This document shows positions 50,129 to 63,585 of a stretch of DNA of 64,000 bases, in pieces (the stretch's first letter is position 1; every line of letters starts with the position of its first letter). A program made the position numbers and the translations under genes. Origin of the DNA: an uncultured Desulfospira sp. GTDB lineage: Bacteria; Desulfobacterota; Desulfobacteria; Desulfobacterales; Desulfobacteraceae. Below the pieces are notes generated by a model, which made no database searches, was not told the DNA's origin, and saw only the letters and a list, made by a program, of their open reading frames with translations. Location of the stretch: assembly GCA_963663165.1 (NCBI GenBank), contig OY760175.1, positions 2,688,001 to 2,752,000 on the forward strand, read 5' to 3'.

Positions 50129-52102
50129 ATGAAACGCTTTTTGAAAGGCCTGGCAATCCCGGGCGTTTTTTTACTGGCCGCAGGGTTAATGCTCTGCGGA
50201 CCTGCGGGTGCCGTGGACTGTTCCGGGTGTTATGGTGAGGCGCTGTCTTTTTGCGGGATCGAAACCCCATTAGAAAATGAGGAATGCTTTCATTCAGAAT
50301 ACAGCTTCTGCCTGGAGTTCTGCTGTAAGGATGGATGTTATATGGATGTTGTTGATCCATGCCAGGTGACCTGTTATGAAAATTATTATTTATGTGAAAG
50401 TGCCTGCCATGACGATTGTGAGCAGCAATATTGTGGAGAAGAAGGGTGCGGGGAGGGATACGATCCATGTATGGGAGAGTGTACCTATTCCTGTGAACAG
50501 ACACGGGATGATTGCGGTTATCAGTGTGAATATGACAACCCGGAATTTGATTTATGTGTCACTGAGTGCCAGTCAGGAGGAGACATTGACGGGGATGGTG
50601 TTAGCGACGCCATCGACAACTGCGTTTACATCCCTAACCCGGGCCAGGATGATGCCGACGATGACTTCATCGGAGATGCCTGTGACAACTGCAGCAGCGT
50701 ATCCAATCCTTACCAGGAAGACGATGACGATGATTATGCCGGCAATGCCTGTGATCTGTGCCCTTGGGTATACAGCAATGCGCCTTATCAGGACACCGAC
50801 GGAGACGGGGAAGGAGATGCCTGTGATCCGGACATTGATGGGGACGGGCACCTCAATGAGTCGGACAACTGCCCCTTTGTATCCAACTATTTGCAGGAAG
50901 ATGCAGACGGGGACGGCATCGGCGATGCCTGCGATCTGACAGACATCCGGATCAGTGCAGCCTCTTATCAGACCCTGGACCTGTCCATGAAAAAGGCACC
51001 GGAACTGGACAGCCCGGAAAACGGCCATGCACTCTATGACATTTCTCCGGTCAGTCCTTTCATGGCCGCGGCGTTTGATATCAGCAGCGATGATTCAGAA
51101 CGGGTGGTGGGATGGTATGCCCCTGATACCGCGTTTGACAATGAACGGCGCGGATTTGTGTGGGGAGATGATTTTGACACCGATTCCAACACAGATGATG
51201 CCGTCCGGATTAAAATATCGGAAGAAAATGCTGACAATACCATGTTATGGGGAATCTACAACGACTCAAATTATGTAGGGCAGTACACTTTGGACGGTGT
51301 AAAACAAGGGGTGTGGGTACAACGGTCTTACGCACCGGAATTAGGACTTTATTCCTATTCATACCAGCCCCTGGTCCCGGATTTATCCGGTGCATACTCC
51401 AGCAGCGCCTGGGATTATGCTGTCGTGGACGGCTCCGTCAGCATTGTGGGCCGTTATTATAGCCAGACAACAGGGCAGGATCATGGCTATCTATACCAGC
51501 GGACGTACAGCCCCAACCTTACGGAAACCTATACCGCCATTAGCATGCCCGGGGCCAGTGGCACCTATGGCAGCGGCATTAACGACAACGGGCAGATTGT
51601 CGGGTACTACAGTGATGTGTCGGGTACCCACGGGTTTTTGTTTGACGGAACCAACTATGTCTCCATCAATGTTCCCGGGGCCGTCAGCACCCTGGCCTAC
51701 CGTATCAATAACCAGGAAGACATTTGCGGCTACTTTTTAGGAACGGACGAACAATACCACGGGTTTGTCTATTCAGGCACCCAATTTCAGACCTTTGACA
51801 TTGAAGGGGCCAAGGACACCTTTGCCTTTGGCCTCAATGATGACGGTAAAATTACCGGATACTTCAGAGATAAACTGGGCACCCACTCGTTTGTGGCACA
51901 GCCCCTTCCTGAAACTACTGTCTGCATAGGAGATTTTGACAATGACAATGACGTGGACAGTGAAGACCTTGGTGTTTTTGCGGGACTTTTCGGGGTGAGC
52001 GGCAGTGAAAGCCCTGCAGACATTGCCGCTCCTTCGGACAATGATGTGGACGGCCTGGATTTGGCCAAGTTTATCACCTGCCTGACCACGGGATGTCCCT
52101 AA
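50129..52102 (+). CDS. Secreted protein: Cys-rich region, thrombospondin type-3 repeats, beta-repeat domain, dockerin-like C-terminus
   Basis: Signal peptide, DxDGDGxxDxCDNC…N..Q.D repeats, GIND.GQIVG.Y…HGF repeats, [12 protein letters not shown]. Confidence 0.8.
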
Positions 52103-52128
52103 TTCGTTTAAAAAACAGATAAATTTCT

Positions 52129-52176
52129 TGCCGGGGCCTTTGTTCTCATTTCCAGAACAAAGGCCCCGGCATTTTT
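52129..52176. terminator. Terminator between convergent genes
   Basis: TGCCGGGGCCTTTGTTCT-loop-AGAACAAAGGCCCCGGCA followed by T residues. Confidence 0.85.
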
Positions 52177-52197
52177 AACTCTTTCGGGACCAAGGGC

Positions 52198-53733
52198 TCA
52201 GCTGGGCCGGGCCACCAGGACCGGCACCTTTGAATGCCGGATCACGCCCTGAGCCGTGGAGCCCAGGAAAAAGTCTTCAAGGCCGTCCTGGCCGTGGGTG
52301 CCCATGATGATCAGATCAAAGTTGCCCTGTTGGGCTTCCCGGACAATTTCATCCACCGGGTCTCCGGTTCTCACGATGATATTCTCTTCGGCCAGGGGGC
52401 AGGTGGGGATTTCCTCCAGAACTTTTTTGGAGGTCTTTCTGATTCGGTCACGGACAGTCTCTTCTGCCTGCGCCACCGCCTGCCGGTCCATTTTTTCTTT
52501 TTCTTCTTTGTCCATCTGGCCTGAAAGGTTCATGCCGGCCTGGGAAGACTCCGCCTCCATGGGATCGCCGACCACATGCATGGCCCATACCTTGGCATTG
52601 AACTTATTGCCGATGGTGCAGGCGTACCGGGCGGCAAACTTGGCCGTGTCCGAAATATCCGTGGCAAACAGGATCTTTTGGATATTCATGGTCATGGGGC
52701 CCTGGATGGTCTCTTCCGGGGCTTTGGCCGGCGGGGCGGAAGGGGCCGCTTCTGTTTCGTCTTCGGTTTCTTTCAGGGGGCCAAAAATCCTGCTGGTAAA
52801 CTTCACATACCAGGCCGCGGACTGGACCTGTATAATATAGGCCACCGCCACCACTAAAGCCGCGCTGGCCCCTTCTTTGCCGAATGCGTTAATGGCAATG
52901 GCAAGAGCAATGGACAAATTGCGCATCACCGATCCGTAGACCAGGGCAATGGCATCGCCTCTGGGCAGAAAGTACTTGCCCACCATACTGCTCAATACAT
53001 AGTTGAGCCCGTAGATGATCACCAGGGGAATTAAGATGTAGAACAGCATGGCCGGGGCTGCGGCAATGCCCTTGGCCTTAAGGGCCATGGCAATGAACAC
53101 GATGCCGATCACCCCTAAGGTGGACAGGGCCGGGAACTTGGGGCCGATATTCTTTTGAAAGGATTTCATTCCGTACTTTTTGACCAGGTGCCGGCGGGTC
53201 AGGAATCCGGCCGCCATGGGCAGAAAAACAATGATCACAATCTGCTGCATGACCTTGGCAAAGTTGATCTCAATGGAGGCCCCCATGAGCAGTTTAACGT
53301 AAAACGGGGTGGCAATGGAGCCTAAGGTCAGCCCGATCACGGTCATCTTGACGGCAGCGGCAATGTTGCCCTTGGCAAATCCGGTCCAGGAAATGGTCAT
53401 GCCCGAAGTGGGAACCAGGCCGGCCAGAAGAAGCCCTAAGGCCATATACGGCTGGTTTCTGAAAAATATCAGGCCGGCCACCCAGGCCACAAAGGGAATA
53501 ATGCCGAAGTTGATCACCTGGGTTAACACCTGGGCCTTGCCGTCACCGCCTTCAAACACCTTCTGGATGTTTAAGGTGACCATCATGGGGTAGACCATCA
53601 GAAAGGTAAAGGGGATGATCATGCCCTTGAGAAACTGGGCATCAAATATAATCCCGAAAATGAACCCCGAGACCATCATGACCGGGATAGCGATAATCAG
53701 ATTTTTTGAAATTTTACCTAAGAATTTCCACAT
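52198..53733 (-). CDS. Acr3/BASS-family transporter fused to a universal stress protein domain
   Basis: MVYPMM, PTSGMTISWTGFAKGN, RNLSIALA; C-terminal KILFATD…DLIIMGTHG…GSTA..V.R.S.VPVLV. Confidence 0.85.
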   Translation of the reverse strand: MWKFLGKISKNLIIAIPVMMVSGFIFGIIFDAQFLKGMIIPFTFLMVYPMMVTLNIQKVFEGGDGKAQVLTQVINFGIIPFVAWVAGLIFFRNQPYMALGLLLAGLVPTSGMTISWTGFAKGNIAAAVKMTVIGLTLGSIATPFYVKLLMGASIEINFAKVMQQIVIIVFLPMAAGFLTRRHLVKKYGMKSFQKNIGPKFPALSTLGVIGIVFIAMALKAKGIAAAPAMLFYILIPLVIIYGLNYVLSSMVGKYFLPRGDAIALVYGSVMRNLSIALAIAINAFGKEGASAALVVAVAYIIQVQSAAWYVKFTSRIFGPLKETEDETEAAPSAPPAKAPEETIQGPMTMNIQKILFATDISDTAKFAARYACTIGNKFNAKVWAMHVVGDPMEAESSQAGMNLSGQMDKEEKEKMDRQAVAQAEETVRDRIRKTSKKVLEEIPTCPLAEENIIVRTGDPVDEIVREAQQGNFDLIIMGTHGQDGLEDFFLGSTAQGVIRHSKVPVLVARPS

Positions 53734-53809
53734 ATGTTTTGGGGTCCTTTTGATTTAGGGGGTTAGGCTGAAGGGGGACACTATCCTTCAGTCTAACAGC
53801 CTTCAGTCT

Positions 53810-55912
53810 TCAGCCTACTTTTTCCAAACTTGGAAAAAGTTTCATGTCCGTATGGGGCAGGAACTGGGCCTGGATAAATTCGTCCATGAACCGGCTGGAA
53901 CTTGAAAAATCCACATAGGTCATGGTGTTGGAAATTTCCACGGCCTTTCTTCTGTAATCCCTTGACATCAGGGCCATGTAGGCCCCGGCCACAGAGCTGT
54001 TGCCCATGTATTTGAATTTGTCCCGGTCAATGTCCGGCAACAGGCCGATGCTCACCGCTTTGTCAATGTTCAGGTACTGGCCGAATCCGCCGGTGATGAT
54101 AAATTGTTCCACCATGGAAAAGTCCATGCCGATGCCTTCAAGAAGAGAAACAAAACCGGCATAAACGGCCGCCTTGCTCAGCACCAGGCTGCGGATATCA
54201 GATTCCGTGAAAATAATGTCGTCACTGGTATCTGCGTTTTCACTGGATTCAATGATAAAGGCCGGTTCCTCTTTAAACCGGGTCATCCTCGGATGGATGT
54301 CATATAAAAGAAACTTTCCGTCCTGGCCGATGACGCCCTTGTCCAGCATTTCCGAGAGCAGATCAATCATGCCTGACCCGCAGATGCCCCGGGCCGGTTT
54401 GTTCTCAACCGTTGAATAGTCCGGGTCAAAGGTGTTGGGGTTGAGGCTGATTTTTTCAATGGCACCGTCCTCGGCCCGCATGCCGAAACGGATCCCGCCC
54501 CCTTCAAAGGCAGGCCCGGCCGAACAGGCCGCAGTCATGAGAAATTCTTTAGAGCCTAAGACAATCTCACCGTTGGTACCGATGTCGATAAACATGGTTA
54601 AGGGGTCTTTATCGTAAAACCCCGTGTAAAGGACGCCCGAGACAATATCCCCGCCCACATACCCGGCAGGACCGGGCATGATGAATACCCCGGCATAATG
54701 GGCGGCTTTCAGCCCGATTTCCCCGGCCTTGATAATGGGGAATTCCGACACCGTGGGGATATAGGGTTCCCGGCGGATATAGGCGGCTTCAATTCCCAAG
54801 GCCAGGTGAACCATGGTGGTATTGCCGGAGATGACCACGTTCTCAATCTGGTGATGGCTCTCTTCAAGGCTGTCCAGGGCCCTTAAGGTCAGGTTGTTGA
54901 TGGTGGAGATGGCCATTTTTTTAAGCTTGGCCACCCCGTCCTTTTCAGAGCAGACGATCCGGTTGATCACATCATCCCCGCAGGCGGCCTGGCTGTTATG
55001 GCCCGAGGCCCCGGAGATGATTTTCCCGGTGACCATGTCCACAATATAGACCACAATGGAGGTGGTTCCGAGATCCACGGCAAGCCCTAAGGACCTTGAG
55101 GCCTCATGGGCGGGTTTGACCTCCACAATTTCAGAGGAACATTTTTTCACCAGGACAGACACTTCCACATGCCAGTTGTCTTTCCGCACGGCCTGGGTCA
55201 GCTGCCGCATGACCCGGATGCTGGCGCTCATCCTTTCAATATCACAGCCGTTCTGTTTGAGACCCCGCTTCAGGCGCTCAAGATCGCTGACCGTATCATC
55301 AAGGCTTGGGGGCGCCATTTCCAGAATATATTTTTTCACCATGGGGTCCGGTGTCAGGACCAGGCCGGACAGTTTTTCAGTGGCCTCTTTGCCCATACCC
55401 ACGGCCTTGAGCTTTTTCTCTAAGGTCTCTTCAGGAATCCGGACCGTCACATCGCCCGTGACAATGGCCTGGCAACTTAAAACCATGCCTTTTTGAAGCT
55501 CCATATCCGTAAGCAAAGAGGTATGGGTTCCGTTTTTAACACTGCCGGATTCCACGATCAATTTGCATTTGCCGCAGGAGCCCTTGCCGTTGCACGAGGC
55601 ATTGACATAGACATCGGCTTTCCCTGCCGCTTCCAGCAGGTTGGTCCCGGCAGGGACCTTGACGGTCACATCCTGGGGCTGAAAACTAACCGAACAGGCC
55701 GAAGAATCATCGTCAGCGGCCTGGGCTGCTGCGGCTTTTTTTTCAGTTTTGTCAAACCCCTTTTTGGAGATGAAATGGATGGGGCAGGAAGATCTATATT
55801 TACAATATATATCCGGGTCCCGGCACTCCAGGCAGTCTTCGCACAGATAGATCTGGTGCTTCATACAAAGATAATTGGTTTCGCGGTCAGGATGATTGAT
55901 GCAAGTGCCCAT
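53810..55912 (-). CDS. ASKHA-type reductive activator (RACo/RamA-like) with 2Fe-2S domain and extra Cys/His N-terminal module
   Basis: CNGKGSCGKC…LSCQ, DLGTTS, GDDVINRI, DIGTNGE, CSAGPAFEG. Confidence 0.88.
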   Translation of the reverse strand: MGTCINHPDRETNYLCMKHQIYLCEDCLECRDPDIYCKYRSSCPIHFISKKGFDKTEKKAAAAQAADDDSSACSVSFQPQDVTVKVPAGTNLLEAAGKADVYVNASCNGKGSCGKCKLIVESGSVKNGTHTSLLTDMELQKGMVLSCQAIVTGDVTVRIPEETLEKKLKAVGMGKEATEKLSGLVLTPDPMVKKYILEMAPPSLDDTVSDLERLKRGLKQNGCDIERMSASIRVMRQLTQAVRKDNWHVEVSVLVKKCSSEIVEVKPAHEASRSLGLAVDLGTTSIVVYIVDMVTGKIISGASGHNSQAACGDDVINRIVCSEKDGVAKLKKMAISTINNLTLRALDSLEESHHQIENVVISGNTTMVHLALGIEAAYIRREPYIPTVSEFPIIKAGEIGLKAAHYAGVFIMPGPAGYVGGDIVSGVLYTGFYDKDPLTMFIDIGTNGEIVLGSKEFLMTAACSAGPAFEGGGIRFGMRAEDGAIEKISLNPNTFDPDYSTVENKPARGICGSGMIDLLSEMLDKGVIGQDGKFLLYDIHPRMTRFKEEPAFIIESSENADTSDDIIFTESDIRSLVLSKAAVYAGFVSLLEGIGMDFSMVEQFIITGGFGQYLNIDKAVSIGLLPDIDRDKFKYMGNSSVAGAYMALMSRDYRRKAVEISNTMTYVDFSSSSRFMDEFIQAQFLPHTDMKLFPSLEKVG

Positions 55913-56032
55913 GATCTCTCCTTTGTTAGGTGGTTAGGCTGAAGGTGTTTGTTGAAGTTTATTAAAGTTATCCCGTACCCTTCAGTCTTCAGTCTAAACG
56001 CCTTTATTAGGGTTATAGGCTGAACCTAAGGT

Positions 56033-56509
56033 TTATAGCTTTTTAATTAATTCTTCAAGTTCTTTAAGGTCGGCCTCGTCAGGATGGCCTATGGCTGCCG
56101 GAGCATCGGGAAGCCATCCCGGAGGTTCAGGCTTCTGGCTTACCTTTTCAAGGACCTTGGGGTTCACCTCACCCTGGCAGGTGAATACGCCGGCCACATC
56201 TGCATTATTGGTCATCTCCACAGCATGCTGTATGGCGTTTTTCACATGATCCGAGCCCCTGGCCGCACCATGGGTGGCAAACAGAAAAATTCGCGACTGG
56301 CTGCCAAGGCCGGCCAGAAACGCCTGGGATTTGGGATCGGGCTTGCCGGCCATGAGCCAGAATCCCACCGCCACCAGGTCGTATCCGTCTGGGTCCGGGG
56401 CCTGGTCAACGGGAAAAAGGTCTTTTCCCCCATCCAGGGCATCATATATTTTTTCGGCAAGCTTCTGGGTGTTGCCGCTTTGGCTGGAATAAACAATCAA
56501 TGTTTTCAT
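56033..56509 (-). CDS. Flavodoxin family protein
   Basis: YSSQSGNTQKLA, VGFW, FATHG, GHPDEAD. Confidence 0.88.
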   Translation of the reverse strand: MKTLIVYSSQSGNTQKLAEKIYDALDGGKDLFPVDQAPDPDGYDLVAVGFWLMAGKPDPKSQAFLAGLGSQSRIFLFATHGAARGSDHVKNAIQHAVEMTNNADVAGVFTCQGEVNPKVLEKVSQKPEPPGWLPDAPAAIGHPDEADLKELEELIKKL

Positions 56510-56617
56510 TGGTATTCTCCTTGTTATGTCAGGTGGTTGGGCTCAAGTGTATTGAATCGCCTGTAAAACTGTTGCATTGGCTTCCAAATTTTTCCTTTTC
56601 AGCCCAACCCCCTTTTT

Positions 56618-58693
56618 TTAGTTTTCAGTCTCCAGCTTCCGGTCTCCAGTCTCCGGTTTCCGGTCTCCTGTTTCATACCCCATTGGCAGCTTCTTGAACC
56701 GGCCGCCGTAAATAATGGGATCACCCTTATACCCCAGGGCTTTAAAGTTAATATAATCGGTTTTGTTGATCAGGTGTTCCACATCCCTTCCCTTGGATTT
56801 CATAAAGGAAAAGTCGGTTCCCTTCTGGGCAATGGCTTTAAAATCCACATTCCGGTTATCCTGGTGGCACCGGTTGCAGGTTTGATCGCCCTTCAGGCTT
56901 TCATGGCACTGGACACAGGACAGGGCCATGTCTGCGGGCATGACTTCATGCTCTAAGCGCCAGTACATCCAGGTCTCTTTCCATTTGTATGATCCGGAGT
57001 AGGGCAGGTCCACGGCGTTCATGCCGTCCTCAAAGGCCTTGTCCCAGTCCAGGTTTTTCCAGTAAGCGGTTTTGTCCTCCTTGTTTCTGGGAAACAGGTG
57101 GGGAATCAGGATGGTTTCATGGTCCGCATCCACGGCCTGGATGCCTTTCATGATCTTGAAGGGCGTGATTTTGGACGAGGGATCCTTCATAGAGCCCACC
57201 GGTGTCGTCAGGTTGATGACAGCGGCATTGAGATCCACGGTATCCCCCATGAGAACCCGGTCCATATATCCTGAATACCACTGATAATCCGGGACAGCGG
57301 ATTCCTCCCATTTAAACTCGCCTTTTTTCCAGTCATAGTCCGGCTTTCCGTACTTATCCATCTGGGGTTTTCTCTTTTTGTCCCCGGCCTTGGACCAGTC
57401 CCAGAAGGTCTTGGTGGGCTTGCACTTGGCAAACACAGGGGAATGGCAGACATTGCAGTCCAGGGTTTTGCTGTGGCTGTTCAGGTGATGATCTAAGAGG
57501 CCGCCGCTGTAATGGGGCGCCTCACCATGACAGTTTTCGCATGACACCGCCCCCTCGGCCACAGGGACCGACGTACTGCGGCCGGAAATTTTATGGTTCC
57601 GGGTCTTATGGCATTCAGTACAGGCAAAATCATATCCGCCCATGTGAATGTCACAGCTTCGTTCAGGGTTGAGCAGCTGCCGGGACATGTCGGCGTGTTT
57701 GATGGCGTCCCCGCCCCCGCCGTTAAAGTGGCAGGAACCGCAGGAAGCCCGGCCGGAATGCCCCACGTTCTGGGCCACCATTTTCAAATCCACCTCTTTT
57801 TTGGGCATGCCGGCTCCCGGCGGGTCTTTCTGGTAAGTGCCCGTGGTGTCGTGGCAGACCAGGCAGTCCATTTTTGTCTTATCGGTAAAATCAAAGTTTG
57901 CGTCTTTCCATCCATATCCGGCATGACAGCTTGTGCAACGAGCCTCGTTGCTGATGGGGCTGATTCAATAGTTGTTCAGGGCCGTGGTGCCCTTGCCGTG
58001 CAGGATGTCCTTTCGATGCCCCGTGGTATAAGGTGAAGGGCCTTTCCAGAGCCAGTGGGCGCTTGTCAGCATGTCTTCTGCCTGGGTGTCGTGGCACCTG
58101 AGGCATTCTGCCGTAACCTGAAAGGGATCAGCACCGTCGGGCAGGTTGACCAGTTCTTTGTGGTTGGGAACATTTTTTAAATGGCATCCCTTGCAGTCTG
58201 TGGGCCCTTTGGCCTCATCCTTGTGGCATTCCATGCACTGCTGGTGGTAGGCGGCTTTCAGCCCGATCCGTTCGGGATGGTCTTCATCAAAGGCCTCCTG
58301 GTGGCAGGCCGAACACCGTGTGGTTTCTAGGGCAGCCTCATCTTTTGGCCGGTAATGATGGCATTTGGTGCAGTCCTGAATCAGGGCCGCATGCCGTTTA
58401 TGGGCAAACCGTACCGGTTCGTAATGGTCTTCTCTTTGTTTGATGACGGGGCTGTCCAGGAGAAAATAAACATCGGTAATATCTGATAAAGACAGGCCCT
58501 CTTTTAAAAGACGCATCTTGCGGGCGATCTGGTCTTCATTTTTGTACTCACTGACAAAGGGGACCGTTTCCAGGGTCCTTGCCTTGGCCGCTTCCTGGTC
58601 CGGGGCACGCCAATCCTTGGCGGCCAGGCAGACAGCGGTTTGCAAAAGCAGCAAACTCAACATTATGAGCCCAACCGTTAAGTTCCTATTCAT
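56618..58693 (-). CDS. 13-heme c-type cytochrome (c3-like domain fused to octaheme tetrathionate reductase family) with in-frame UGA at 57965-57967
   Basis: The two ORFs are in one frame separated by a single TGA (LNNY*ISPISNEARCTSCH). 13 CxxCH motifs, signal peptide, 691 aa if read through. Confidence 0.85.
57926..57964 (-). promoter_or_regulatory. Candidate bacterial SECIS element
   Basis: GCAACGA-GGC-UCGUUGC hairpin begins 14 nt after the UGA; possible lower CAGC/GCUG stem. Confidence 0.6.
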
Positions 58694-59886
58694 GATACCT
58701 CCTTGGTTGTTTGCAAAACAGGTAAATAGGTTACAACAATCCTGTAAATGAACATCAGCGTGGCAATCAGGCCGAAGGTCACCATCATTTCCCCGATGGA
58801 GGGGAAATAGCCCGGATCACTCAAGGGCGGTTTAAACCCCACAATGAACACGTTGATCCGGTTGAGCACCACACCGCCCACAATGAGGGTGGCCGCTGTG
58901 AAAACCCCTTTTCGGGAGGTTCTTATTTTTTTGGCCAGCAGCATGGCCCAGGGAATCATAACCCCGAATACCATTTCCACGATAAAGGAATTGGTCTGGG
59001 CGGTCCCGTCCAAAAGATAGGTCCAGGTGCCCCGCACTGCCATATCCCCGATTTTCAGGGCCATGTAAATTCCCAGGAGGACAATGGTGATCCGGGTCAG
59101 CGGCGACAGGATATTCATTTCAGAGTCCAGTTTAAACGAGGAGGTGGCAAGGGTGGTTTCAAATACCACCATGGGATACCCCACGGCAAAGGCCGAGGTT
59201 AAAAACAGCAGGGGCAGGATGGGCGTGTACCACAGGGGATGCAGTTTGGTGGGGGCAATGAGCATCAAAGACCCAAGGCTTGACTGGTGCATGCAGGACA
59301 GCACCACCCCCAGGATGATCAATATCCACATGATTTTGTCCACTATGGCGTCTCCGATTTTCAGGACCGCTTCGATCAGGCCGTTGAGTCCGGCAAAGGG
59401 GCCGGGCAGGTTCACCCGCCCCTTGAACTGTTCGGCCACGATGGGGAAAAATTCAAGGTAAAGCACATTCAGGTAGCACATGACACACATGGCCACCTCA
59501 AATAGAACCGAGTTGGGGTTCCAGTTGAACATGGGCTTCCAGATGGCCCAGGACCGGCCAATGTCCACCATGAGCCCCAAGACCACAAAGGTGTAGCCAA
59601 GGACTGCCGTCAACAGGGCCGGCCGGGTGACGGGTTCGTAATAATGGCGGCCGAAGATATGGGCCAGGGCGGCGGTGGTAAATCCGCCGGCGGCCAGGGC
59701 CACCCCGGTGGCCACATCCACGCCGACCCACAGGCCCCAGGGCCTGGCCGTACTCAGGTTGGCCACATAGCCGATACCGCCGGTAAACCGGGCCATGATG
59801 GCGGCAAAACCAGCCGCCATAAAGGCCAGCATGACCAGGACCCCCGGGGTCCAGAAGGGCCTGTTTAAGGGACTTGCTTTATGCAT
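58690..59886 (-). CDS. NrfD/HybB/HmcC-type membrane subunit
   Basis: [41 protein letters not shown]. Confidence 0.9.
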
Positions 59887-60802
59887 GGCCGCCTCCTTTC
59901 TCGTCTTTATTTTTGCCGTCAGCCTTGTTGAAACCGAACATGGCAACCCCGAGCAGCCCAAACAGGGCGATGGGGGACCACAGGTAGCTGAACAGGGAAT
60001 GCTGGATGGTTTCGGACAGCTCTGGAGACGGTTTGTCCGGCAGGACCGGCAGGTTGACCTTTTCAAAGGGAACCGCTGAAATATAAAGCCAGGACGTGCC
60101 GCCCACCTCTTTTTCCCCGTAAATATGGTTAATGTATTTGCCCGGGTTTTGAGTTACCCGTTTTCTGGCCACCTTGAGCAGGGTCTCTCTTTTGCCGAAG
60201 GTCAGGGCTTCGGTGGGGCAAATGGTGGCGCACCCGGGAAGCCCGCCGTCTTTTGAGATCCGGTCGTAGCAGAAGGTGCATTTCATGACCTTGGGGGTGA
60301 CCGGGTCAAAATATTCATAGGCCGGGATTTCAAAGGGGCAGGCCACCATGCAGTACCGGCACCCGATGCACTTGTCGGCATTGTACCGGACAGCGCCGGT
60401 TTCATCTTTGGTCAGGGCCCCCACAATACAGGCCGACACGCAGGCCGGGTCCTGGCAGTGCATGCACTGGACCTTGGCAAAGGTGGGCAACGGTTTGTCA
60501 AACTGGTCCAGCTGCCCTGTGAAATACCGGTTGACCACGGTATAAGCCTTGTCATCGGGCCGTCGTTTTTTCTCAAAGATGGTACACTGGCAGTTGGGCC
60601 GTTCCGGGGCCGGCAAATGGTTCACCTGGGCACAGGCTTCCTCGCATTTGCGGCAGCCCACGCACCGGGTCAGGTCCACCAGGCACCCGTAAGGATCCGG
60701 GGGCGCTTTGGACTTCCAGGCGTTGGCAGATGAAGGCGTTGCCGCGACGGTTGCGCCGGCGGCCCCCATGAATTTGAAAAAACTTCTTCGGGTCAGTTGC
60801 AT
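59879..60802 (-). CDS. Tat-exported 4Fe-4S subunit (HybA/HmcB-like)
   Basis: TRRSFFK signal, [37 protein letters not shown]. Confidence 0.9.
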
Positions 60803-60895
60803 TGGACCTCCATTGGTTAGGTTGTTAGGCTGAAGGGGTTTAGGCTTAAAGGGTGTCAATCCCTTCATGCCTATCAGTCTTCAGTCTATCCACCT

Positions 60896-61132
60896 TTAGC
60901 TTCCGGTTCCCTTCCGGATACCAAGGCAGATACAATCGGGTTGTTTCCGGTGATATAGCAGTTCATCCTCTGACCGCAGGATGATGGTGGCCAGGGTTTT
61001 TGCCACCTCCTCATCTTTCAGGATGACCTCAAGACGTTCACCTTTTGCCATGGCGCTCAGACGGCTTTTGCACTTGAAAAGATCAAGGGGGGAAACAATG
61101 CCCCGCAAATCCAGAACAAGTTTTGCCGCCAT
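60896..61132 (-). CDS. TusA/SirA-like protein
   Basis: LDLRGIVSPL…M.KGE.LEV…IRK; AGGAGG RBS; the usual CP is SP here. Confidence 0.65.
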   Translation of the reverse strand: MAAKLVLDLRGIVSPLDLFKCKSRLSAMAKGERLEVILKDEEVAKTLATIILRSEDELLYHRKQPDCICLGIRKGTGS

Positions 61133-61174
61133 AAGGCCTCCTGTTAATGTCTTCAATCGTCCAACACCTGAATT

Positions 61175-61190
61175 AGCAATGGGTGTGCCA
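61175..61190 (-). promoter_or_regulatory. Sigma54 -24/-12 promoter
   Basis: TGGCAC-ACCCA-TTGCT on the minus strand, upstream of the tusA-like gene. Confidence 0.85.
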
Positions 61191-61251
61191 TGGCGAATTA
61201 AAATCATAAGTCGTTAATTTTGTATAAAATTTATAAAATCACACCCCCCAT

Positions 61252-61325
61252 GGTGTTAAAGCACATGTTAAAATTTGTTTTGACACATGTTAAAATTAAA
61301 CATATTTTTAACATGTGTTAAATTG
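61252..61325. promoter_or_regulatory. Putative enhancer (UAS) array
   Basis: Repeated (ACA)TGTTAAAA(TT) and inverted TTAACA units between the sigma54 promoter and the activator gene. Confidence 0.6.
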
Positions 61326-61368
61326 GCCGTTGCAAACATAAACAGGCTGCCGGATCAGGGGGGATGGA

Positions 61369-62766
61369 ATGGACGAACATGAGATGAACGTCTTCTGGAA
61401 AAAGATTGTGAACACCATCAACGACGGCCTGTTGTTCATTGGGCCGGACGGGTCCATTTTAATGGTGAACAAAGCCTTTGAAACCCTGACCGGGTATGCT
61501 TCGGATGAGGCCATCGGCATGTCCTGCCGGATCCTGGGGTGCGATGCCTGTGAACAGGCCCTGAAAACCGGCAAAACATCGGTCTGGTGCAAGTTGTTTG
61601 AACCGGGCCGGCAAGGGATGAACAAGTGCCGCTGTCTGCTCAGGCGAAAGGACGGCAGTTTTTTCCCGGTACTCAAAAATGCGTCCATCTTTAAAGATGA
61701 AAACGAGAATATACTGGGCGTTGTGGAGACCCTCACCGATATATCGGAAATAGAACGCCTGGATGAAAAGGTTCATATGCTGTCCCGTCAATACGGGAGG
61801 GACAGTGATTTTTACGGTATGGTGGGCAAATCACGGCAAATGGAGGCCGTGTTTGAAATGGTCCGCAAGGCTTCTGATTCGGCCGCCCCGGTGATCATCT
61901 TGGGGGAAAGCGGATCAGGCAAGGAGCTGGTGGCCGATGCCATCCACCTGTCCGGGGCCAGAAAAAAAGGCCCCTTTATCCGGCTCAACTGCGCGGCCCT
62001 GAACCCGTCGATTCTTGAAAGTGAGATGTTCGGCCATGCCAAAGGGGCTTTCACCGGGGCCTATGACAACCGCATCGGCCGGTTTGAGGCGGCGGACACG
62101 GGCAGCTTTTTTTTAGATGAAATCGGCGACATGCCCCTGCCCTTGCAGACCAAGCTGCTGCGGGTCCTTGAATCCGGGCAGTTTGAACGGGTAGGGGAGA
62201 TCGATCCCGTCCGGGTGGATGTCAGGATCATTACCGCCACCAACAAAAATCTGGAAGACCTGATCCAAAAAAATGAATTCCGGCAGGACCTGTTTTACCG
62301 GATCAATGTTTTGCCCATTCATCTGCCTCCCTTGAGGGAAAGAAAAGAGGACATCCCGTTGCTGGTCAACGCCTTTATCGGGCGGCTGAACCAGGCGTCG
62401 GGCAAAACCGTCACCAGGGTGAGCCGGGAGGCCATGGACCAGTTCATGGACCACACCTTTCCGGGCAATGTCCGGGAGTTAAAAAATGCTTTGGAGTACG
62501 CCTTTGTCACGGCCGACGGCCCGGTGATCCGTCTGGAACATCTGCCCAAATCCATGGCCCCGGCCGGGCCGGAACCACAGGTTTCTTTGCCGGAAACCAC
62601 CCCCCCGGAAAAGATTTTAGATGAAAAACAGCAGCTCATTAACGCCCTGAAAAAAACCAACGGAAATCAGACCCAGGCGGCCCGTCTGTTAAAGGTCAAC
62701 CGGGTCACGGTCTGGAACCGCATGAAAAAATACGGCATTGATCTTAAAAAAACATTGGCATGCTGA
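61369..62766 (+). CDS. PAS-containing sigma54-dependent activator
   Basis: PAS, GESGSGKE, GAFTGA, FLDEIG, FPGNVREL, Fis-type HTH. Confidence 0.95.
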   Translation: MDEHEMNVFWKKIVNTINDGLLFIGPDGSILMVNKAFETLTGYASDEAIGMSCRILGCDACEQALKTGKTSVWCKLFEPGRQGMNKCRCLLRRKDGSFFPVLKNASIFKDENENILGVVETLTDISEIERLDEKVHMLSRQYGRDSDFYGMVGKSRQMEAVFEMVRKASDSAAPVIILGESGSGKELVADAIHLSGARKKGPFIRLNCAALNPSILESEMFGHAKGAFTGAYDNRIGRFEAADTGSFFLDEIGDMPLPLQTKLLRVLESGQFERVGEIDPVRVDVRIITATNKNLEDLIQKNEFRQDLFYRINVLPIHLPPLRERKEDIPLLVNAFIGRLNQASGKTVTRVSREAMDQFMDHTFPGNVRELKNALEYAFVTADGPVIRLEHLPKSMAPAGPEPQVSLPETTPPEKILDEKQQLINALKKTNGNQTQAARLLKVNRVTVWNRMKKYGIDLKKTLAC

Positions 62767-62985
62767 TTTGTATCCCCAGGGGAAAAAGATAAATATGGCG
62801 AAAAGGACATAAAATAAAAATATGGCGTTTCCGACATAATGAGAAAGAGCCTTTCCAGATCCCCCGCATTTTCCTAATTCTATTCTAACGAAAATCAAAT
62901 TTATCCCGTATATGTTAAATCACGCTGTTTTGGCGTGGGGATGAGGGTGGTTTCCCTTTTTTCAATCACAAGTTGCGGGATGATA

Positions 62986-63585
62986 ATGAACCGGTATATC
63001 TTTATTTTTTTGGTCATGGTACTGGCCTTTGGGCTGTCAGGCTGTTTTATTCCTGAAACATTTGATGCCGCTATCCACGTGGCAAAGGATGGGTCGTATA
63101 CCTTCCAATACACCGGCACCCTGGCCTATGGCCCTGCGTTAAAACAAATACAGAAGGTTGCGCTCACCCCCGAAAACGAAACAAAGCTTAAGGCCATGGC
63201 AACAGAGTTAAAATGGCCCCCTGAATTTAAAACCGTCACCTATGAAGGGAACGCAAGATTTGCCGCACAGGTTGAAAAATCAGGGCAACCCAACGAAGAC
63301 TATATATTTATCAATAAAGATTTTTCCTTTCTTTCCATATCCCACGAGCCCGACGGTACCATAAAGGTCAGTTCAAAAAAATGTGAGGGTGAACAGCTCA
63401 AGATGCTAAAAAATATCCGCGCCCGGATAGACGGGCATCTGACCATATCTGTGAAAAGCCCCATGAAGGTGCTGGACCATAATGCCCGCAGATCTCCAAG
63501 ATTTTTGGGCCTTTTCGGGGATTATGAGTGGGACATTCAGTCATTTGAAGACCCGGTGTTGATGGTCATTAAACCGGCATCTTAA
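62986..63585 (+). CDS. Hypothetical lipoprotein
   Basis: Lipobox LSGC after a hydrophobic stretch. Confidence 0.7.
   Translation: MNRYIFIFLVMVLAFGLSGCFIPETFDAAIHVAKDGSYTFQYTGTLAYGPALKQIQKVALTPENETKLKAMATELKWPPEFKTVTYEGNARFAAQVEKSGQPNEDYIFINKDFSFLSISHEPDGTIKVSSKKCEGEQLKMLKNIRARIDGHLTISVKSPMKVLDHNARRSPRFLGLFGDYEWDIQSFEDPVLMVIKPAS

Follow-up and report, generated by a model that had tools for sequence, protein, structure and literature searches.

A conserved operon with sigma54-type control for a predicted selenocysteine-containing OTR-family cytochrome in an uncultured Desulfospira

Background

More than 20 years after the structure of the octaheme tetrathionate reductase (OTR) of Shewanella oneidensis was determined, its physiological reaction is not settled, and PMC12949373 states that it was never established. 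An OTR homologue in Beggiatoaceae reduced tetrathionate in vitro and its gene adjoins thiosulfate-reductase genes (PMC6449678), and in sediment microcosms tetrathionate raised otr transcript levels 36-fold (PMC8528874). A selenocysteine (Sec) form of OTR has already been tabulated as a GenBank-annotated protein, WP_331457571.1 (PMC13188914), and in MccSep a site composed of Sec and heme cleaves polysulfide (PMC13510729). The Ohc and Nhc complexes have been proposed or assumed to connect the periplasm with the pool of quinones (PMC4287179, PMC6491731), and Nhc has been tied to the use of H2 (PMC4215793). A 2015 study predicted a sigma54 activator encoded divergently from an operon for an octaheme cytochrome, together with a matching upstream activating sequence (UAS) in each of two genomes (PMC4641369). 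Here we describe a locus in a 64,000-nucleotide stretch of DNA from an uncultured Desulfospira sp. (assembly GCA_963663165.1, contig OY760175.1, positions 2,688,001 to 2,752,000; the whole stretch is termed the window), in which a sigma54-type promoter precedes genes for a TusA-fold protein, an Fe-S subunit, an NrfD-family membrane subunit and a 13-heme cytochrome that probably contains Sec within an OTR domain.

The operon is carried by many sulfate-reducing bacteria. Its core is tentatively read as a menaquinol-linked periplasmic reductase of sulfur-sulfur (S-S) bonds, as in tetrathionate or polysulfide, with Nhc- and Ohc-like architecture, a reading to which we give slightly less than even weight; both the substrate class and the direction of electron flow are putative.

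The conserved core of the operon

The core genes and their control region comprise the following features:

61369..62766, plus strand: enhancer-binding protein with PAS, sigma54-interaction (AAA+) and Fis-type helix-turn-helix (HTH) domains (Pfam PAS_9, Sigma54_activat, HTH_8)
61257..61322, strand unassigned: four UAS-like palindromes, TT[T/A]AACA-N2-TGTT[T/A]AA (motif search)
61175..61190, minus strand: sigma54 -24/-12 promoter, TGGCAC-N5-TTGCT (pattern search)
60896..61132, minus strand: TusA-fold protein of 78 amino acids, without the CPxP cysteine (PF01206, 28.0 bits, cut-off 28.6)
59879..60802, minus strand: 4x[4Fe-4S] subunit of the HybA/HmcB class, with a twin-arginine translocation (Tat) signal and a C-terminal membrane helix (HybA and HmcB scores, hydropathy)
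58690..59886, minus strand: NrfD-family quinone-site membrane subunit of the HybB/HmcC/NhcC class (PF03916)
56618..58693, minus strand: 13-heme cytochrome of 691 amino acids, TIGR04315 (profile score, alignment with 1SP3, AlphaFold2 model)
57965..57967, minus strand: in-frame TGA, codon 243, predicted Sec (aligns to Cys64 of S. oneidensis OTR)
57935..57951, minus strand: hairpin of the Sec insertion sequence (SECIS) type, with a 7-bp stem and a G-containing loop, 13 nucleotides after the UGA (contrast between TGA and Cys loci)

All of the parts named in an earlier note on this DNA (the PAS activator, the UAS array, the -24/-12 promoter and the minus-strand run of genes) are present where that note had placed them. 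The TusA-like gene was likewise found, and its start was corrected from 61207, which is upstream of the promoter, to 61132, behind an AGGAGG site.

The locus was compared with 72 related loci, kept from 214 confirmed stretches and chosen by peptide patterns outside the recoding region. The Fe-S gene and then the NrfD gene precede the cytochrome gene in 52 of the 53 loci with enough upstream DNA, the sole exception being a partial match (L072). Of 57 loci, 35 have a same-strand TusA-fold gene upstream, and an orthologue of the divergent activator (at least 50% identity) occurs in 44 of 53. As delimited by these sequence comparisons, the core is a set of four genes (TusA-fold, Fe-S, NrfD and 13-heme cytochrome) together with the divergent activator. 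The window's TusA-fold protein carries Ser where TusA has the CPxP Cys, and its relatives that were inspected have Ser or another non-Cys residue at this site; a sulfur-carrier role for this protein is not supported, as its catalytic Cys is missing.

Probable selenocysteine recoding of codon 243

Codon 243 of the cytochrome gene is TGA in 59 of the 72 related loci and a Cys codon in 11, and the remaining two do not cover the site. The 7-bp stem of the downstream hairpin forms all seven pairs in each of the 60 TGA rows (59 loci and the window) and only 3-5 of the seven in all 11 Cys rows; the 17-mer containing it is identical in 59 of the 60 TGA rows, synonymous positions included. The SECIS assignment rests on this contrast between TGA and Cys loci, since the folding z-scores of four segments following the UGA were not significant (-0.78 to 0.47). 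The genome carries tRNA-Sec, selA and selB, over cut-off. The proposal of the earlier note that the UGA is recoded and the protein is a seleno-OTR is supported by the distribution of the two codons among the 70 loci that cover the site and by the tie between hairpin and TGA, and UGA243 is probably read as Sec.

A quick IQ-TREE search, run without the window's own duplicate and without rows having fewer than 330 amino acids of OTR domain, recovers a single clade of 61 Sec and 6 Cys rows (SH-aLRT 100) in which the Cys rows branch from among the Sec rows, and the Sec/Cys label needs seven changes over the 97 tree rows. Judged from the sequences, the nested position of the Cys rows is as expected for reversions from Sec to Cys. 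Residue 243 is likely catalytic, because it has apparently been swapped between Sec and Cys several times and has a dedicated recoding hairpin. The Sec form occurs in the isolates Desulfosarcina variabilis, D. widdelii, D. cetonica and Desulfamplus magnetovallimortis, and the Cys form in Desulfospira joergensenii, Desulfobacter curvatus and D. vibrioformis. The nearest named relatives of the host cytochrome in the quick tree are those of Desulfobacter and Desulfospira.

Across 301 sampled genomes of the phylum, an OTR-family match was found in 49, and 21 of 54 matches hold one TGA; in 30 loci taken from this survey, TGA stands at codon 243 in 11, one of which is the window. Six of these 11 are 8-heme loci, and five of the six use a different hairpin sequence. 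This alternative SECIS-like hairpin of the 8-heme Sec-OTRs (L089, L091, L098, L100, L102) encodes an additional Cys that stands two positions ahead of the heme-2 motif, and suggests separate gains of Sec or turnover of the hairpin.

The 13-heme cytochrome

With the TGA read as Sec, the cytochrome has 691 amino acids, a signal peptide and 13 CxxCH motifs, four of them in a class III c3 domain, eight in the OTR domain (motifs at 197-597; TIGR04315, 489.8 bits, cut-off 375) and one extra at 606. Residues ~178-599 align to S. oneidensis OTR (1SP3) with an E-value of 1.7e-117, and codon 243, counted from this alignment, lands on OTR Cys64. An AlphaFold2 model built from a 116-row alignment reached a predicted local distance difference test (pLDDT) value of 85.9, compared with 34 for the single-sequence model. 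In a Foldseek search with the model, 1SP3 was the sole match at E <= 0.001 (E 4.5e-43; template-modelling score 0.86 by target length), followed by c3, nine-heme and Hmc cytochromes; the best structural relatives of the c3 domain are the type II cytochrome c3 (TpII-c3), the C-terminal domain of HmcA and the nine-heme cytochrome.

The residues aligned to K56, C64, D150 and K153 of OTR are kept in the cytochrome, C64 in the form of the TGA codon. K234, aligned to K56, which we take to be a heme ligand in OTR, is present in all 116 alignment rows, K332 in 114 and D329 in 108; Cys stands at position 243 in 104 rows, one of which is the query itself, written C for U. In the OTR structure, Cys64 and active-site Lys and Asp residues reportedly line the site of the Lys-ligated heme 2, as Mowat is said to have described in 2004. 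The penta-coordinated heme of OTR has been placed in the N-terminal module (PMC9250108).

Several 13-heme orthologues (P0103, P0109-P0114, P0119-P0121) have Leu at the Cys/Sec position and keep the Lys, which makes them a naturally occurring control for what residue 243 does. Two non-heme Cys residues of the cytochrome, 347 and 424, each occur in 109 of 116 rows and are missing from the aligned 1SP3; they may form a disulfide or a second redox site. The low-confidence tail of the protein is formed by a genome-wide repeat (56618-56680).

Promoter and activator

The TGGCAC-N5-TTGCT site (61190-61175) is the sole match to the strict sigma54 pattern on the minus strand of 52000-63000. The perfect palindrome TTTAACA-N2-TGTTAAA (61307-61322) occurs a single time in the 6.74-Mb genome. 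For the related loci, 46 intergenic regions between activator and Fe-S gene were surveyed (45 loci and the window). The strict sigma54 pattern is found in 20 of them, against 0.24 expected from shuffles, and the relaxed pattern GG-N8-TTGC in 35, a count made without a shuffle control. A UAS-like site with at most three mismatches is present in all 46, against 3.35 expected, a count that is partly circular because the consensus was derived from those same regions.

When a position weight matrix built from the relatives was run over the whole genome, its top match lay in this promoter region, and among the six top positions only two sites, both in this region, have a sigma54 site within 260 bases. 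The 40 best matrix sites contain no second strong target combining UAS and sigma54 site; two weaker ones score 16.7 and 16.4, compared with 21.9. The HTH of the activator is identical, by eye, in 20 of 38 residues to the DNA-binding domain of DVU3142, and the activator is probably of the kind of this Ohc regulator. Control by sigma54 and UAS, as the earlier note had envisaged, is thus supported for the conserved core, promoter and UAS being kept across homologous regions.

Wiring of the predicted complex

The Fe-S subunit scores 276.9 bits with HybA (cut-off 263) and 345.9 with HmcB (cut-off 420), only the former over its cut-off, and its 16 Cys residues are invariant in all 55 sequences. The NrfD subunit has nine hydrophobic segments in a simple hydropathy scan and scores below cut-off throughout (HybB 330.9, HmcC 284.7, QrcD 99.4 and NrfD 42.7 bits).

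The contact between Fe-S subunit and cytochrome was modelled with ESMFold2 on the Cys-orthologue pair of locus L005, together with three controls. The pair scored 0.68 and the best control 0.00; 116 of 157 solved pairs and 2 of 215 mismatched ones reach this mark. At least 87% of contacts are shared between the runs, with a partner pLDDT of at least 84. All named contacts of the cytochrome fall within the c3 domain (85-165), and those of the Fe-S subunit (46-52, 99-101, 188-214) lie beside the clusters bound by C47-C57 and C191/C195. The model supports a predicted wire running from NrfD through the Fe-S subunit and the c3 domain to the OTR domain. Together with the synteny and with natural fusions of NrfD and cytochrome (P0099, L081/L103, L117, L118), it supports the earlier proposal that an OTR-family cytochrome is what the Fe-S/NrfD pair works with in the periplasm.

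Three fusion loci were examined (L103:4202-13208, L117:36-7762, L118:4996-13042). Each encodes a TusA-fold protein, an Fe-S subunit and an NrfD fused to a 12-heme c3-OTR cytochrome (about 1080-1090 amino acids), and the operon continues with two further genes, one for a molybdoenzyme resembling PhsA (537-573 bits, cut-off 694) and one for a PsrB-like Fe-S protein; in L103 a multi-rhodanese gene comes next. No separate membrane-subunit gene was recognised in these three loci, and the layout, with PhsA-like and PsrB-like genes and no membrane gene of their own, fits a quinol-oxidising module for sulfur acceptors. One membrane module may there supply two catalytic sites. In the present genome, a PhsA-like gene (C1:4839638) was considered as a remote member and rejected, as its start shows no Tat signal and it comes with partners of its own.

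Substrate and direction of electron flow

In the proposed mechanism, a sigma54-induced, membrane-anchored complex would pass electrons from menaquinol through NrfD, the four Fe-S clusters and the c3 domain to the OTR heme site, where, in analogy to MccSep, Sec243 could act as a nucleophile that attacks S-S bonds in tetrathionate or polysulfide. The probable purpose of the complex would be the use or detoxification of sulfur-cycle intermediates in oxidised sediment layers. Tetrathionate reduction, at a potential of +198 mV (PMC8528874), is downhill from menaquinol.

The genes that recur around the core were enumerated in the related genomes, which represent few independent events, and no background count accompanies the numbers. 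In 4 of 57 loci a gene for the Sec-peroxiredoxin PrxU (418 bits, cut-off 270) separates the TusA-fold gene from the Fe-S gene, and 8 of 55 loci have one no more than 3 kb downstream; a gene for a metallo-beta-lactamase (MBL)-rhodanese lies downstream in 10 of 55. Genes for CoA-disulfide reductase-rhodanese, DsrE and thioredoxin occur within 10 kb in 5, 7 and 15 loci, respectively. By their annotation, these recurrent neighbours point to sulfur and thiol redox chemistry.

Several observations weigh against S-S reduction driven by menaquinol. The neighbour counts come from related genomes with few independent events. The window operon itself is without PrxU or MBL-rhodanese, and no PrxU over cut-off was found in this genome; the TusA-fold protein is without the sulfur-carrying Cys. 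Residue 243 is not universal, since Leu, Ala or Thr stands there in 12 of 116 rows, and the Cys reversions retain the operon. The score of the complex model may reflect likeness to solved Fe-S/cytochrome pairs, and a Cys orthologue was used for it. Polysulfide reduction from menaquinol would be uphill and would need reverse electron flow or type I cytochrome c3 (TpI-c3). HybAB and HmcBC give the best scores for the Fe-S/NrfD pair, and Hyd-2, Nhc and Qrc have been tabulated as reducing quinone (PMC8076601). Finally, deletion of otr in Shewanella ANA-3 left tetrathionate use unaffected, and the same paper gives nitrite and hydroxylamine reduction as the prevalent in vitro activity, its authors suggesting sulfite (PMC12949373).

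The alternative that survives best, although we consider it unlikely, is an Nhc-like complex working in the reverse direction. It would reduce menaquinone with electrons that enter through the c3 domain from the TpI-c3 pool (H2, formate), or that are released when thiosulfate or sulfide is oxidised at the OTR site, for instance during disproportionation. The relationship of the c3 domain to TpII-c3, the C-terminal domain of HmcA and the nine-heme cytochrome is in line with this, as are the HybAB/HmcBC class of the Fe-S/NrfD pair and the tabulation of Nhc and Ohc as TpIc3/menaquinone complexes (PMC8076601), whose partners are 'assumed' (PMC6491731). However, a pure carrier leaves the invariant Lys, the Cys/Sec residue with its dedicated hairpin and the PhsA-like genes of the fusion loci unexplained, and the presence of a dedicated sigma54 activator suggests that a signal induces the operon and that its role is not a housekeeping one.

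It is less likely still that the complex is a quinol-linked reductase of nitrite or hydroxylamine to ammonium, which would guard a sulfate reducer from nitrite in place of NrfHA. OTRs do reduce nitrite and hydroxylamine in vitro (PMC12949373, PMC6449678), and this 96.7% complete genome yielded no match to the NrfA family, a search that was positive in 2 of 14 genomes when run as a control. Yet the annotated recurrent neighbours are rhodaneses, PhsA-like proteins, CoA-disulfide reductase, DsrE, PrxU and thioredoxin, with no nitrogen-oxide genes among them, and Sec would bring no obvious gain to heme-bound nitrite chemistry.

We regard as rather remote the idea of a periplasmic sulfite reductase analogous to MccACD/SirACD. 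That system shares the combination of octaheme cytochrome, Fe-S and NrfD subunits (PMC8076601), and slight accumulation of sulfite was seen in an ANA-3 ttr otr mutant (PMC12949373); but the host has dsrA, the only significant fold match of the cytochrome is OTR and not MccA, and sulfite is not reduced by MccSep, the only Sec-heme enzyme to have been characterised (PMC13510729).

Respiration or detoxification of selenium oxyanions as the physiological role is very improbable. MccSep oxidises viologen with selenite in vitro (PMC13510729) and a gene for an SBF/Acr3-like exporter is close to the present operon, but Sec marks a residue and not a substrate, the Cys reversions retain the whole operon, the transporter is not a conserved member, and the annotated recurrent neighbours include no selenium-reduction genes. 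The 'selenium respiratory' part of the earlier note's description is therefore not supported: Sec is the putative catalytic residue, which close relatives have exchanged for Cys while keeping the operon, and nothing indicates a selenium substrate. A true stop or sequencing error at the TGA, with a split or dead gene, has practically no standing, for although genetic code table 11 gives two open reading frames and the protein collection holds fragments of ~400 amino acids starting behind the site (P0094, P0116, P0117), 59 of 70 loci, drawn from several families, share a TGA at this codon, the 17-nucleotide hairpin, identical in 59 of 60 TGA rows, is broken in the Cys rows, and the Sec machinery is present.

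Distal genes and flanking regions

Downstream of the cytochrome gene the window contains four further features:

56033..56509, minus strand: flavodoxin-fold protein, an occasional neighbour and not part of the core (PF12641)
53810..55912, minus strand: RACo/AcsV-like ASKHA [2Fe-2S] reductive activator with an N-terminal B-box-like domain, appended and not part of the core
52198..53733, minus strand: SBF/Acr3-superfamily transporter fused to Usp, appended and not part of the core (profile searches)
52129..52171, strand unassigned: perfect 18-bp inverted repeat between convergent genes, a likely terminator closing the run

The RACo-like protein scores 652.5 bits against an AcsV cut-off of 800. 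The gene called Acr3 in the earlier note reaches only 85 bits against the TIGR00832 cut-off of 282.8, and was renamed accordingly. In the 46 loci with at least 7 kb downstream, RACo, Acr3-like and flavodoxin genes lie on the same strand in 2, 1 and 4 loci, and on the opposite strand in 5, 10 and 2. The distal genes recur as a block of thioredoxin, B-box or RACo, and transporter genes beside a second activator with a different HTH; in this genome, that second activator (74% identical) and a thioredoxin gene are found 1.77 Mb away. Over 41 genomes the transporter occurs in 21 and OTR-family cytochromes in 30, a partly independent occurrence. Membership of the distal genes in the system is not sustained by these data, as relatives mostly have no copy of them close by or have them inverted beside another activator; the flavodoxin, RACo and Acr3-like-Usp genes are likely to have been appended in this lineage. 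Loss of synteny, one half of what the earlier note had said would refute its proposal, is thus seen for the distal genes, and the core keeps its order in 52 of 53 loci.

These appended genes may be read through from the core promoter here. Read-through from the sigma54 promoter as far as the transporter, the last gene, is plausible in this genome, because there is no second strict sigma54 site on the minus strand of 52000-63000 and a terminator scan found no minus-strand terminator-like site in the gaps between genes; sigma70-type sites numbered 6 in a scan, where 8.2 were expected. Behind the cytochrome gene, the gaps measure 108, 120 and 76 bases and are filled by short repeats with 56 to 322 genome-wide matches (one mismatch). 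Repeats are borne by the gaps 53734-53809, 55913-56032, 56510-56617 and 60803-60895, and also by 56618-56680.

The B-box-like N-terminal 57 residues of RACo (55742-55912) are found without the rest of RACo in several relatives, and such a RACo-less B-box stands between thioredoxin and Acr3-like transporter genes in L024 (14488-14658), L042, L043, L044 and L058. At L113:4306-12710, genes for a second activator, thioredoxin, an Acr3-like transporter and CoA-disulfide reductase, with no RACo, head an ohcBAC-ordered operon for an 8-heme TIGR04315 cytochrome (626.5 bits) and a cytochrome b. In the present genome (C1:973900-977400), this activator is retained next to genes for an OhcB-like Fe-S protein and a short protein like cytochrome b, and an octaheme gene is missing there. 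The flanks of L001-L071 contain, within 10 kb and in 6-12 loci each, genes for methylenetetrahydrofolate reductase and its C-terminal partner, DUF1638, OsmC, DUF134/DUF5320 and HdrA-like proteins. Convergent on the run in the window is a gene (50129-52102) for a 657-amino-acid secreted protein with a Cys-rich N-terminus, thrombospondin type 3 and HAF-like repeats, which has a 45% paralogue at C1:4865576. The host also carries dsrA, as noted above.

Novelty and significance

The known parts are OTR, its annotated Sec form, the 13-heme Cys orthologues in databases, the Nhc/Hmc-type membrane pairs and the DVU3142-type regulator; the operon, its predicted wiring and the sulfur-handling neighbours are new. 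The earlier label 'undescribed' therefore applies to the operon, but not to Sec-OTR, which had been tabulated (PMC13188914), nor to the divergent sigma54 activator, predicted in 2015 (PMC4641369). In the literature searched, which left most subscription papers outside, we found no account of the operon as a catalytic Sec-OTR complex and none of Sec-OTR biochemistry.

The operon offers a testable handle on the role of OTR, and residue 243 hints that S-S chemistry takes place where discussion has mostly centred on a nitrite-type heme. The dedicated promoter also offers a way to report on the signal that induces the operon. Because gene calling with table 11 splits the gene, the Sec form is probably undercounted in surveys of marine sulfate reducers. 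If the complex reduces sulfur intermediates, a periplasmic branch would be added to the energy metabolism of abundant sediment bacteria. The further-reaching claim, that this widespread Desulfobacterales complex is a quinol-driven seleno-heme S-S reductase, and a second, independent Sec-heme solution beside MccSep, for respiring or detoxifying periplasmic tetrathionate or polysulfide, is possible but on balance doubtful; it would imply that OTR chemistry runs through the Cys64/Sec residue and that the '13-heme Nhc' is a terminal reductase and not a carrier.

Comparison with known systems

Like the OTR of S. oneidensis (1SP3), the window cytochrome has the eight heme motifs, the fold and the K56, C64, D150 and K153 positions. 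It adds an N-terminal c3 domain and a 13th heme motif, and is encoded with an Fe-S/NrfD pair, whereas OTR is a lone soluble protein.

With Nhc (NhcABCD, D. desulfuricans) and HmcABC it shares the HmcB/HybA-type Fe-S subunit, the HmcC/HybB-type NrfD and a class III multiheme cytochrome, with no cytoplasmic CCG subunit in the window run. Unlike in Nhc and Hmc, its cytochrome combines one c3 domain with a putatively catalytic OTR domain holding Sec or Cys; it scores 39.3 bits with the NhcA model NF045784, against 640, and 66.5 with HmcA, against 400, and the window run contains no HmcDEF-type genes. Pereira et al. are said to have noted in 2011 a 13-heme cytochrome in some Nhc-type complexes. As in MccACD/SirACD and NrfABCD, a catalytic multiheme cytochrome would be fed through 4x[4Fe-4S] and NrfD-like subunits; the catalytic fold here is that of OTR, the NrfD belongs to the HybB/HmcC group (NrfD model 42.7 bits), and the c3 domain is a predicted adaptor.

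The Ohc system (ohcBAC, D. vulgaris DVU3143-45; PMC4641369) has in common with the window an Fe-S subunit, an octaheme cytochrome domain and a divergent sigma54 activator. In contrast to Ohc, the membrane subunit is of the NrfD type and not a cytochrome b, lacking the heme-b character of OhcC, the cytochrome has 13 hemes and not 8, and the order is Fe-S subunit, membrane subunit, cytochrome. The arrangement of a divergent one-component activator and a sigma54 promoter is that of the DVU3142 system, and the UAS resembles the sites predicted for D. retbaense and D. salexigens more than that of D. vulgaris (PMC4641369).

The NCBIfam matches of the window proteins include no ExtKL model. MccSep/ExtKL of G. 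sulfurreducens differs in having five hemes and a His/Cys heme, compared with the Lys-type OTR heme here, but is likewise a periplasmic multiheme Sec cytochrome whose Cys forms are nested in Sec clades, and the Sec attack on S-S bonds proposed for it is the template for the mechanism suggested for the window (PMC13510729).

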